Sequence record: MN850621.1
Length of the DNA stretch: 64,000 nt
DNA from: Escherichia phage dhabil
Direction: 5' to 3' (one strand)
Under the pieces are notes generated by a model. That model saw only the letters and a list, made by a program, of their open reading frames with translations. It ran no database searches and was not told the origin of the DNA. The stretch's first letter is position 1, and each line of letters starts with the position of its first letter. This document shows positions 3,836 to 5,297 of this stretch, piece after piece. A program made the position numbers and the translations under genes.

Positions 3836-4459
3836 TTATTTACGAGTCTTTTCGAACTGAGCTGCGTCACCGGCCAGTCGGCGTGCTTGACGAAGTTTGT
3901 TGTCAATTTCTTCGCGCATAGGCTGGGTGTACTTAAGGCCTTCAACCGTCAGATAGAGACGATAAAGGTCTGGTGTGTCCAGGTTGTTAATGTGTTGACC
4001 GTTACGAAGAACATTGAATTCACGAACAAGGTGTTTAGTTTCGGATTCTATTTCAGAAACCAAAGAAGCCAGTTGGTTATATTTTTTAACAATAGTGCTG
4101 GTGTCGAACTTGATTTTAGGTTTAGGAGCTTCTTTTACAGGCTCTGCTTTAGGTGCTGCCGCAGGTTTAGGTGGTGCAACTTTGGTTGGGGCTGCAGGTT
4201 TAGCAACAGGAGCTTTAGCTGGTTTAGCAGGTTTAGTAGCGCCACCGGCTACGATATCTTTAAAAGCTTTGGAAGCTTTGTAATATTCTTTCTGGTTACT
4301 AGTATCAAAACCATACATATCATAAACGTTTTTAAAGAACTCGGTAGTGGTTTTAGTCCCGGAAATTTTATCATAAGCAGCTTGCCACATATCTTTAGTC
4401 ATGCGCACGCTGGCTTCAGTCAGAACGCTTTCGTTCAAAAATTCATTGTAAGTTTTCAT
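3836..4459 (-). CDS. internal head protein, IPIII-like (207 aa) with N-terminal capsid-targeting sequence MKTYNEFLNE
   Basis: N-terminus matches the T4 internal-protein CTS (MKTYQEF-type, L-x-E gp21 cleavage context); Lys/Ala/Pro-rich basic core; T4 IPIII is similar in size. Confidence 0.7.
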   Translation of the reverse strand: MKTYNEFLNESVLTEASVRMTKDMWQAAYDKISGTKTTTEFFKNVYDMYGFDTSNQKEYYKASKAFKDIVAGGATKPAKPAKAPVAKPAAPTKVAPPKPAAAPKAEPVKEAPKPKIKFDTSTIVKKYNQLASLVSEIESETKHLVREFNVLRNGQHINNLDTPDLYRLYLTVEGLKYTQPMREEIDNKLRQARRLAGDAAQFEKTRK

Positions 4460-4499
4460 TATTGTTTCCTGTGTTAATTAACTTATCTATTTATACAAA

Positions 4500-4528
4500 A
4501 AAGGCCCAACCTTTCGGAAGGGCCTTTA
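4500..4528 (-). terminator. intrinsic terminator (GGCCC...GGGCC hairpin + T6, minus sense)
   Basis: Minus sense AAAGGCCCTTCCGAAAGGTTGGGCCTTTTTTG; core identical to the hairpin at 50656-50679. Confidence 0.6.
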
Positions 4529-4529
4529 A

Positions 4530-4694
4530 CCTAGGGTAACCTTGTCGGGGTTCCACCTGCTAGGCAAGTGTTCGGTGCGCCGTTTCAGCTGTGAGATAAG
4601 GGACTTTAAGAGGAACTCATGTACGCCTTAAAGTCGGGTCTTATTCAGGGAACTTCAGTCCGACGACTTACCGGTAGCGACCCGGTTTCTTGTT
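4530..4694 (-). ncRNA. candidate small stable RNA just 3' of tRNA-Arg (position analogous to T4 species 1/2 RNAs)
   Basis: 165-nt non-coding stretch between tRNA-Arg and the terminator, with nested inverted repeats (AAGTCG...CGACTT, CCTAG...CTAGG); no cloverleaf. Confidence 0.3.
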
Positions 4695-4770
4695 TGGTCG
4701 AGACAGTAGGGATCGAACCTACGACCCAGGACTTAGAAGGTCCTTGCTCTTCCTTCTGAGCTATGCCTCG
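4695..4770 (-). tRNA. tRNA-Arg (anticodon UCU), CCA encoded
   Basis: Manual fold: acceptor CGAGGCA/TGTCTCG, D-arm GCTC/GAGC, anticodon stem AGGAC/GTCCT with loop CTTCTAA, T-arm GTAGG-TTCGATC-CCTAC. Confidence 0.8.
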
Positions 4771-4774
4771 TATT

Positions 4775-4849
4775 TGGCGGACATGCATGGATTCGAACCA
4801 TGGACCAATTGATTAACAGTCAACTGCTCTACCACTGAGCTACACATCC
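4775..4849 (-). tRNA. tRNA-Asn (anticodon GUU), CCA encoded
   Basis: Manual fold: acceptor GGATGTG/CATGTCC, D-arm GCTC-AGTGGTA-GAGC, anticodon loop CTGTTAA, T-arm CATGG-TTCGAAT-CCATG. Confidence 0.75.
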
Positions 4850-4853
4850 AAAT

Positions 4854-4927
4854 TGGTGGCCCTGGGTGGAATCGAACCACCATCCAGCGATTATGAGTCG
4901 CTCGCTTGACCGTCCAGCTACAGGGCC
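4854..4927 (-). tRNA. tRNA with CAU anticodon (Met, or Ile if lysidine-modified), CCA encoded
   Basis: Manual fold: acceptor GGCCCTG/CAGGGCC, anticodon stem AGCGA/TCGCT with loop CTCATAA, T-arm GGTGG-TTCGATT-CCACC. Confidence 0.75.
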
Positions 4928-5012
4928 TTAATTCTATTATGAAAGGCTCTTTGAGGGAAGAACCTTTGGTAATAGAGGGTATTAATGATAGAGTAATAAT
5001 ATCACATAATTC

Positions 5013-5297
5013 TTAAAGCATATTAATATAGTCAAGTTTAATAGAAGCAATCTTCAAAGGGTTTTTAAAGATGTCGTATTCGACCAATCCATTTTCAGTT
5101 GCGGTATAAAAAGTAAAGTTAACAGAATTATAGCGATGGCTGTTAACTTTGAGTTTAACATCGCTTGAACTACGGCCAATATTAACCTGTTGAACATCAA
5201 GCACGGCATCTTTGCCGTAATTTCGAATCAACAACTCGGCTGCAACCTGATCGGATTTATAGCCATTCTCTGGATTAGTAACCTTAACGTATAACAT
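5013..5297 (-). CDS. hypothetical protein (94 aa)
   Basis: ORF track; abuts the upstream gene end. Confidence 0.5.
   Translation of the reverse strand: MLYVKVTNPENGYKSDQVAAELLIRNYGKDAVLDVQQVNIGRSSSDVKLKVNSHRYNSVNFTFYTATENGLVEYDIFKNPLKIASIKLDYINML

Follow-up and report, generated by a model that had tools for sequence, protein, structure and literature searches.

The tRNA locus at positions 4,530 to 4,927 of Escherichia phage dhabil (record MN850621.1, of which we analysed a stretch of 64,000 nt, referred to here as the window) raises the question of what a T4-like phage keeps when it carries few tRNA genes; namely, what the conserved non-coding stretch directly 3' of the last tRNA gene is, and which codons the tRNAs read. 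In this T4-like coliphage of the JS98 type, the locus is a small tRNA operon that consists of three tRNA genes and an unannotated rnaD, the gene for T4 'species 2' RNA. Over the 601 bases around it, identity is 100% to Escherichia phage dhaeg (MN850609; Straboviridae, Tevenvirinae, Dhakavirus) and 96–99% to JS98, JS10 and IME08; the dhaeg record annotates the three tRNAs (Arg, Asn and 'Met') and nothing between tRNA-Arg and the next open reading frame (ORF). Taken as a whole, the locus is very probably a reduced T-even tRNA operon of the T2L/RB3 type, with decoders for AUA and AGA and a stable, trans-acting rnaD.

The identification of rnaD comes from homology to annotated phage records (T4 X03016, T2L AJ880101 and RB10 KM606999). 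A BLAST search with 4495-4694 at sensitive settings returned 743 phage records, and the annotated features beneath the matches are 'rnaC' and 'rnaD' or 'species 1 RNA' and 'species 2 RNA'. Against T4 species 2 RNA (X03016, 4615-4734), identity is 55/60 (92%) at the 5' end and 26/30 (87%) at the 3' end (E = 1e-20), and window positions 4699-4571 align end to end with RB10 rnaD (101/130, 78%; E = 5e-25). We placed the ends of the window copy, 4693 and 4573, from those annotated for its T4 homolog; the start thus placed is 2 nt past the CCA of tRNA-Arg (4695) on the same strand, as in T4. The first-pass annotation had described 4530-4694 as one 165-nt structured non-coding stretch that runs to a strong terminator, in the position of T4 species 1 and 2 RNAs. 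The stretch is indeed non-coding and conserved. It is, however, not a single unit, as it comprises a 121-nt rnaD and a 45-nt trailer, with the terminator just below 4530, and the annotated records support species 2 in this position and not species 1 (rnaC), which is absent. On the rnaD strand, Rfam 15 holds no family for 4530-4694 even at E ≤ 10, T4 rnaD and rnaC being likewise unmatched, and a BLAST search of rnaD and the trailer against 5,426 E. coli genomes returned no match at E ≤ 10, with neither a host homolog nor long complementarity.

rnaD has been known since the 1970s. RNAC and RNAD of T4 have been classified from RNA sequencing, with Northern probes for RNAC and ssrA (PMC9697503); the function of rnaD is stated as unknown (PMC3014915, PMC9697503) and has been open for about 50 years. 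The window copy resembles that of T4 in its place 3' of tRNA-Arg on the same strand, in the homology of its first ~55 nt and last ~30 nt, and in the predicted P1–P5 layout and length of about 120 nt. It differs in its apical hairpin, which is of unrelated sequence (dhaeg/JS98 type as opposed to the T4, RB10 and T2 types), in its 3' end (...CACCG instead of ...CACCA), in being followed by the trailer and terminator where T4 has rnaC, and in being unannotated in the dhaeg record.

For the structure of the RNA, we collected 26 distinct rnaD sequences from annotated records and from pattern scans of IMG/VR and metagenome contigs and aligned them with MAFFT; six chance matches of a gapped metagenome pattern in GC-rich coding DNA (L019, L021, L024, L028, L031 and L035) were discarded. 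Four segments are invariant (CCGGGUCGCUACCGG, AAGUCGUCGGACUGA, UCACAGC and GAAACGGCGCAC) and UCCCUG is nearly so, and the central region comes in three or more versions of unrelated sequence (dhaeg/JS98, T4/RB10 and T2 types), all of which fold into a hairpin. The RNAalifold consensus begins with a 5' hairpin, P1 (R-CCGG / GUCGCUA / CCGG-Y), and continues as a long interrupted helix, P2–P4, that bears the variable P5 (Table 1). Compensatory change is seen at 5 pairs, namely the basal pair of P1 (A-U/G-C), one of P3 (U-A/A-U) and three of P4, and 98.4% of the alignment cells are paired. Three measures (the covariation score, the share of cells paired and the number of doubly changed cells) were reached by 0/500 shuffles, whereas 123/500 matched the number of doubly changed pairs, which therefore does not stand out. 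As a control, sliding the partner strand by 1–3 columns reduced the signal to near zero. We then built a covariance model from this alignment and added Vequintavirinae and Klebsiella-phage sequences. In the resulting 30-sequence alignment, which was fitted to the model and is therefore biased in its pair counts, 12 of the 22 pairs show compensatory change, 98.6% of cells are paired and 0/500 shuffles reach any measure. Examples are P1 changed to GCAGG/CCUGC and P3 changed to GAUU/AGUC or UAAU/AUUA, with the P1 loop GUCGCUA unchanged in strong copies.

Judged by thermodynamic stability alone, the stretch does not stand out (z = -1.0 for the 121-nt rnaD and -2.4 for 200 nt including the terminator). 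As the folding energies are not distinctive, the case for an rnaD structure rests on covariation; homology and covariation together confirm, at the level of sequence, that the stretch is more than chance. Four further candidates were rejected or not adopted. An alternative P3 register (CUG/CAG, from single-sequence minimum-energy folds) involves a varying position that has no partner in dhaeg-type sequences, whereas the RNAalifold P3 pairs in both types. A K-turn or tandem G-A motif, which would suit the GACUGA/GAAA internal loop of T-even and Vequintavirinae copies, is kept as no more than an idea, that loop being unconserved in Klebsiella phage KaAlpha. A small peptide of 12 codons, possible in T4 rnaD with its initial AUG, was rejected, as this codon is absent from the window copy and from most lineages. 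Finally, the tRNA-like 3' end is ACCA in T4 and RB10 and elsewhere ACCG, ACAG, ACCU, ACCC or AUCC, and KaAlpha lacks it.

Table 1 Features of the tRNA/rnaD operon and candidate promoter in the window
Feature	Positions	Strand	Basis or detail
Candidate MotA-dependent middle promoter	4996-5020	minus	Consensus match: TGCTTTA 5020-5014, 12 nt, TATTAT 5001-4996
tRNA-CAU, most likely tRNA-Ile2	4854-4927	minus	ARAGORN; Rfam 62.6 bits; CCA encoded
tRNA-Asn (GUU)	4775-4849	minus	ARAGORN; Rfam 72.6 bits; CCA encoded
tRNA-Arg (UCU), AGA reader	4695-4770	minus	ARAGORN; Rfam 63.8 bits; CCA encoded
rnaD ortholog (T4 species 2 RNA), ~121 nt	4573-4693	minus	Homology to T4 and RB10; covariance model 131.8 bits
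rnaD P1 hairpin	4686-4682 / 4674-4670	minus	Invariant loop GUCGCUA 4681-4675
rnaD P2	4667-4661 / 4582-4578 + 4576-4575	minus	GUCGUCG/CGGCG-AC
rnaD P3	4654-4651 / 4590-4587	minus	RNAalifold
rnaD P4	4647-4641 / 4599-4592	minus	RNAalifold
rnaD P5, lineage-variable hairpin	about 4639-4601	minus	
Conserved trailer (3' external spacer), 45 nt	4528-4572	minus	Hairpins CACUUGC-CUA-GCAGGUG (4570-4554) and AACC-CCGACAA-GGUU (4552-4538)
Intrinsic terminator of the tRNA/rnaD operon	4497-4527	minus	Hairpin 4527-4503 + U6 4502-4497

We also examined the distribution of rnaD, which is present in about 735 phage records, including T4-, RB69-, JS98- and VR5-like phages. RB69-like and VR5/VR25-type contigs keep only tRNA-CAU, tRNA-Arg-UCU and rnaD; rnaD has thus been retained where rnaC and most tRNAs have been lost. 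Directly upstream of strong copies lies tRNA-Arg, tRNA-CAU, tRNA-Tyr or the stop codon of an ORF, and the same invariant loops are kept. Six records of Vequintavirinae have a copy after tRNA-CAU. Escherichia phage A5-4, a member of this subfamily, has two strong copies (112 and 91 bits), one after tRNA-CAU and the other after tRNA-Tyr, the second being seen only in this phage, where it fills the exact slot of a 75-nt tRNA-like element in the relative A7_1. A divergent copy, the one such match with statistical support, lies directly after tRNA-Asn in KaAlpha (Karamvirus; 27.6 bits, E about 2e-4), and other Klebsiella T4-like phages have weaker model matches after tRNA-Asn that do not keep every invariant segment. 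The covariance model found no match in the syntenic tRNA regions of Salmonella STP4-a, Yersinia TG1, Klebsiella KP179 and RCIP0006 or in a 2-kb tRNA segment of Aeromonas CC2. A 61-nt query made of the end of tRNA-Arg and the 5' core of rnaD is at least 90% identical in most records; the protein of the deoxynucleoside monophosphate kinase gene (gp1), 2.3 kb away, is ~50% identical between dhaeg and T4-type phages.

Several observations accompany these copies. ARAGORN does not call the A7_1 element (OP795442, L055:1586-1660), which combines an acceptor-like stem of 7 bp and a canonical T arm (CUGGUUCGAAUCCAG) with an ACCA end and, where the anticodon arm would be, a 7-bp hairpin; this architecture recalls T4 rnaC. 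In T4-like contigs from IMG/VR (L011:~1041-1110, L012:~325-389 and L013), the ~70 nt between a T4-type tRNA-Arg and rnaD resemble a truncated rnaD duplicate (GCCGUCGUAUGAAGACUGAUUACCAGCAUUCACCGGCGCAAC). P1 (4670-4686) resembles the T arm of a tRNA: it reads GCAGG-GUCGCUA-CCUGC in the second copy of A5-4 (L051:2378-2394), and the T arm of the KaAlpha tRNA-Asn (L045:18204-18220) reads GCAGG-UUCGAUA-CCUGC, with a loop that differs from that of the A5-4 P1 only at the equivalents of positions 54 and 58 (U:A to G:C). This likeness suggests that rnaD derives from a tRNA.

We propose that rnaD, a rod-shaped RNA of ~121 nt with a 5' hairpin like a T arm and then a long interrupted helix, would be cut as a stable RNA from the tRNA precursor, be recognised sequence-specifically by a protein or RNA partner and act in trans. 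It is from the invariant loops and internal loops, the compensating stems, the swapped apical hairpin and the retention after transfer to another subfamily that we infer a functional, trans-acting RNA. When a T4-like phage was evolved on ECOR34, the same convergent single-nucleotide polymorphism arose in rnaD in all lines; from the published coordinates, this change (BW1) falls in the central part of rnaD, without being placed exactly (PMC12685909). The polymorphism hints at a host-dependent role.

The chief alternative is that rnaD is a cis-acting 3' module that guides maturation of the upstream tRNA by RNase E or a 3' exonuclease, or protects it, and accumulates as a by-product. In its favour, rnaD is found in nearly every lineage 1–2 nt after the CCA of a tRNA, behind an A-rich leader, and takes the same kind of slot as tRNA cassettes. 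In T2L-type phages, however, rnaD is preceded by an ORF stop codon, and RB69-like contigs have an ORF interposed between tRNA-Arg and rnaD, so that adjacency to a tRNA is not required. Moreover, the other tRNAs of the same arrays mature without a module of this kind, a processing aid would have no need of four invariant 7-nt loop segments, and the adaptive, host-specific change on ECOR34 maps to rnaD itself (PMC12685909). We consider a role in cis rather unlikely. A non-functional spacer or decayed tRNA pseudogene before the terminator is strongly disfavoured and highly improbable: the 165-nt stretch has a folding energy close to that of shuffled sequence and P1 resembles a mutated T arm, but the sequence is conserved in more than 730 phage records, has long invariant segments and compensatory change at 12/22 pairs, was kept after transfer to another phage subfamily and has a T4 homolog that is a detected stable RNA. 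Within the preferred, trans-acting reading, a more specific version is possible, although we hold it only tentatively: rnaD may be a self-contained, tRNA-derived cassette that moves between the tRNA arrays of unrelated phages and whose loops would engage a factor of host or phage in trans, perhaps by serving as a decoy.

The window also differs from T4 in what follows rnaD. The ~144 nt that hold species 1 RNA (rnaC) in T4 are precisely missing, like an absent cassette; with slashes marking the junctions, T4-type phages read GCGCACCGAA/UUAUCGAUUCG...CGUUUCGUACAA/ACACUUGCC and dhaeg reads GCGCACCGAA/CACUUGCC. A blastn search of the whole window with T4 rnaC gave chance matches only, and the T-arm motif GGTTCRANTCC was not found outside the tRNAs. 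T4 rnaC (137 nt) is comparable to rnaD as a companion stable RNA of the same operon and is also cassette-like in the array. Its likeness to a tRNA is nevertheless overt, as it has both an acceptor-like stem and a canonical T arm (CCGGGUUCGAAUCCCGG), whereas rnaD has only the T-arm-like hairpin with a changed loop.

From 4572 down, the window aligns with the sequence that runs from just past species 1 RNA through the terminator in T4 (64/77) and RB10 (70/82). The first ~33 nt of the trailer (AACACUUGCCUAGCAGGUGGAACCCCGACAAGG) are nearly invariant in 22 distinct sequences of T4-, RB69- and JS98-type phages, with or without rnaC; a consensus fold was obtained for the trailer, in which both hairpins are without covariation. 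The trailer and terminator (4572-4497) could be released as a small RNA of the 3' external transcribed spacer (3'ETS) type. Like E. coli 3'ETS-leuZ, they form the last segment of a tRNA operon and end in an intrinsic terminator, and their sequence is highly conserved; 3'ETS-leuZ acts as a sponge for small RNAs, and the comparison is no more than an analogy. The terminator hairpin, AAAGGCCC-UUCC-GAAA-GGUU-GGGCCUUU, folds with a GGCCC/GGGCC stem and a GAAA loop ahead of the U6 tract. One compensatory pair (C-G to G-C) distinguishes lineages, and the homologous T4 site is annotated as a potential terminator (X03016). A simple terminator scan missed the hairpin, which we attribute to its internal UU/UU mismatch. 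On the plus strand, 4670-4695 combines the complement of P1 with a T-rich run (ACCGGTAGCGACCCGGT TTCTTGTTTG) and scores as terminator-like; this site could stop antisense transcription into the tRNA genes, or the score could be a coincidence.

Upstream of rnaD, ARAGORN finds exactly three tRNA genes in the 64-kb window, as the first-pass annotation had reported, and the Rfam tRNA model (RF00005) scores each far above its gathering score of 29 bits, so that both predictors accept all three folds. The CCA said to be encoded can be read in all three genes. Of the 4–5-nt spacers that had been noted, only the lower figure holds, both being 4 nt (AUUU and AAUA, read on the minus strand). The contrast drawn with the eight tRNAs of T4 is borne out by published counts, which tabulate three tRNA genes for JS98-type phages and eight for T4 (PMC2993671). 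The remarked presence of tRNA-Asn-GUU, called by both ARAGORN and Rfam, is a trait common to T2L and RB3-type phages. By alignment, the window tRNAs are orthologs of the T2L/RB10 set and not of T4's own tRNA-Ile and tRNA-Arg: tRNA-Arg is identical at 75/76 positions to that of T2L and RB10 and at merely 51/76 to that of T4, tRNA-CAU matches the T2L CAU tRNA at 69/75, and tRNA-Asn, an ortholog of the T2L/RB10 gene, matches that of T2L at 63/75. T2L, RB1/RB3 and RB10 preserve the order of these three orthologs (CAU, Asn-GUU, Arg-UCU) in their tRNA regions, together with rnaD and the terminator. They differ in having 10 tRNAs (or extra ORFs) and rnaC, where the window has three tRNAs and rnaD, the intervening Tyr having been lost.

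The tRNA genes may also be targets of gene conversion. The T4 homing endonuclease SegB recognises the motif GGTTCRANTCC in the T arm and cleaves tRNA genes at their 3' ends, immediately past CCAR; it drives conversion of the tRNA region in mixed infections, and its preferred site is the T2L tRNA-Asn gene (PMC2330249). GGTTCRANTCC followed by CCAA is present in both the tRNA-Asn and tRNA-CAU genes of the window (4775-4927, minus strand), and the tRNA-Asn sequence, GGTTCGAATCC...CCAA, fits the published recognition consensus (PMC2330249). Given these matches, the window phage may be a conversion target in co-infection with T4, and SegB-driven conversion fits the cassette behaviour of rnaD. The changed loop motif of rnaD P1 falls outside the SegB consensus.

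Which codon the CAU tRNA reads bears on the role of the set. Its acceptor stem, GGCCC...GGGCC (C4-G69, C5-G68), is that of K-12 ileX, and metT/metU have GGCTA...TAGCC in the alignment; its anticodon stem-loop, GCGACUCAUAAUCGC (GCGA-CUCAUAA-UCGC, C29-G41), is identical to that of ileX and unlike those of metT/metU. The tRNA has A37 and A38, and it also shares U12-A23 and discriminator A73 with ileX. The determinants for TilS are C4-G69 and C5-G68, where tRNA-Met instead has U4-A69 and A5-U68, and the identity elements for isoleucyl-tRNA synthetase (IleRS) are A73, U12-A23, C29-G41, A37 and A38. Among 5,426 E. coli genomes, the best matches are annotated as tRNA-Ile of the prophage ileZ type, the closest being a prophage tRNA-Ile at 80.5% identity. 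This closest relative lies in a prophage of E. coli ESC818 (L037:24659-24969), in a lambdoid array of Ile-CAU, Arg-UCU, Thr-UGU and Gly-UCC tRNAs upstream of the lysis genes. Lambdoid clusters of this kind (ileZ/argN/argO type) resemble the window in pairing a CAU tRNA-Ile with tRNA-Arg-UCU, and differ in lying upstream of lysis genes in temperate phages and in being without rnaD. The CAU tRNA is most likely tRNA-Ile2, a look-alike of the host tRNA that would read AUA after host TilS converts C34 to lysidine.

We compared codon usage between 54 long ORFs of the window (18,775 codons) and 40 ORFs of a 50-kb K-12 segment. The two most phage-enriched codons are AGA (5.3-fold) and AUA (4.8-fold); AAU is enriched 2.2-fold and ATG is not enriched (0.8-fold). 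The earlier suggestion that the CAU tRNA could be an AUA-reading tRNA-Ile is thus strengthened by its ileX-like stems, its tRNA-Ile matches in E. coli and the enrichment of AUA. The codon data support a codon-supplementation role for the CAU and Arg-UCU tRNAs, which would supply decoders for AUA and AGA, the codons most over-represented relative to E. coli. tRNA-Asn, which is less well explained, would add capacity for the abundant AAU/AAC codons.

Two other accounts of the tRNAs deserve attention. The three tRNAs might mainly replace host tRNAs that are cleaved or depleted during infection by anticodon nucleases or tRNA-targeting defences, with codon matching secondary. Phage tRNAs can rescue infection from tRNA-cleaving defences, Asn and Arg tRNAs are targeted by colicin E5-type and colicin D-type nucleases, and tRNA-Asn reads common codons, so codon rarity leaves it unexplained. 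We nevertheless judge replacement unlikely as the main role: the two tRNAs that recur in RB69-like and VR5/VR25-type contigs are exactly the decoders of AUA and AGA, the rare codons most enriched in the phage, and the anticodon loops of host and phage would be identical, which would offer the phage tRNAs no evident way around nucleases that recognise the loop. It is improbable that the CAU tRNA is an elongator tRNA-Met, the label given by ARAGORN and in GenBank records (MN850609, AJ880101 and KM606999). Its anticodon is CAU, as the label requires, but the labels rest on the anticodon alone; the acceptor and anticodon stems are those of ileX and differ from metT/metU at the pairs that separate substrates of TilS and IleRS from those of methionyl-tRNA synthetase, the best E. 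coli matches are annotated tRNA-Ile, and enrichment is seen for ATA and not for ATG.

At the upstream end of the operon lies a candidate middle promoter (Table 1) that overlaps the stop codon (5015-5013) of a trna.2 homolog. In the T4 middle-promoter consensus, a MotA box (TGCTTtA) precedes a TAnnnT -10 element by about 12 bp. A generic sigma-70 promoter scan gave chance-level matches only. The whole T4 cluster is transcribed from a middle promoter that lies immediately before it, as one precursor of ~1.75 kb that spans all tRNAs and both stable RNAs and ends after species I RNA (PMC2330249). The window transcript probably starts at a MotA-type middle promoter. By analogy with T4, a single middle-mode transcript from the minus strand would run from tRNA-CAU through tRNA-Asn-GUU, tRNA-Arg-UCU, rnaD and the conserved trailer to the intrinsic terminator, host tRNA-processing nucleases would free its parts, as the T4 literature implies, and rnaD would accumulate as a stable RNA. 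The locus would thus represent the T2L/RB3-type core of the T-even tRNA operon, reduced as in JS98-type (Dhakavirus) phages.

At the downstream end, the T4 late-promoter consensus TATAAATA is found at 4495-4488 (minus strand), one base past the U tract of the terminator and 29 nt before the ATG (4459) of the ORF at 3836-4459 (minus strand). This motif, which occurs 18 times in the window against 8.3 expected, belongs here to the next gene. In JS98, IME281 and VR5, a different gene follows directly after the shared terminator and late promoter (compared with window 4400-4496), and in JS98 the ORF start found at 4459 in the window has shifted by about 0.9 kb; the differing genes make the downstream boundary of the operon another mosaic junction. 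The neighbouring ORFs have no Pfam matches and are assigned solely to PHROGs of unknown function.

Several points weigh against the reading of the locus as a whole, in addition to the model bias in the 30-sequence alignment. Only homology locates the promoter, the sites of processing and the ends of mature rnaD. rnaC cleavage by RNase P presumably helps to define the 3' end of rnaD in T4, and with rnaC missing the product in the window could be longer, up to ~197 nt, and end at the terminator. The folding energy of rnaD is not better than that of shuffled sequence in most lineages (z of -0.5 to -1.4), and its high conservation could partly reflect recent horizontal spread and not selection. 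Laboratory strains support growth of T4 deletion mutants from which the entire tRNA region is missing, so any function would be conditional. Lastly, codon supplementation explains tRNA-Asn poorly, since neither AAC nor AAU is a rare codon in E. coli.

For a T4-like phage there is nothing unusual about the locus, and the three-tRNA set of JS98-type phages is already published (PMC2993671). What is new is modest: the unannotated rnaD of the window, the probable relabelling of a tRNA as tRNA-Ile2, the precise loss of rnaC in JS98-type phages and the occurrence of rnaD in a few Vequintavirinae. Two points of annotation are corrected: the 'tRNA-Met' should most likely read tRNA-Ile2, a decoder of AUA, and the dhaeg record, like many related ones, lacks an rnaD gene. 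We found no published rnaD fold supported by covariation in the searchable literature or in Rfam. The covariation-supported structure and the list of invariant loops offer handles on the function of T4 species 1 and 2 RNAs, as do the persistence of rnaD despite loss of rnaC and tRNAs, its crossing to another subfamily and a phage that is naturally free of rnaC and so allows rnaD to be studied by itself. If rnaD is indeed a mobile cassette, a decoy of this kind could modulate a host-specific barrier to infection, JS98-type phages would serve as natural rnaC-null backgrounds, and the conserved trailer could additionally act as a small RNA of the 3'ETS type.

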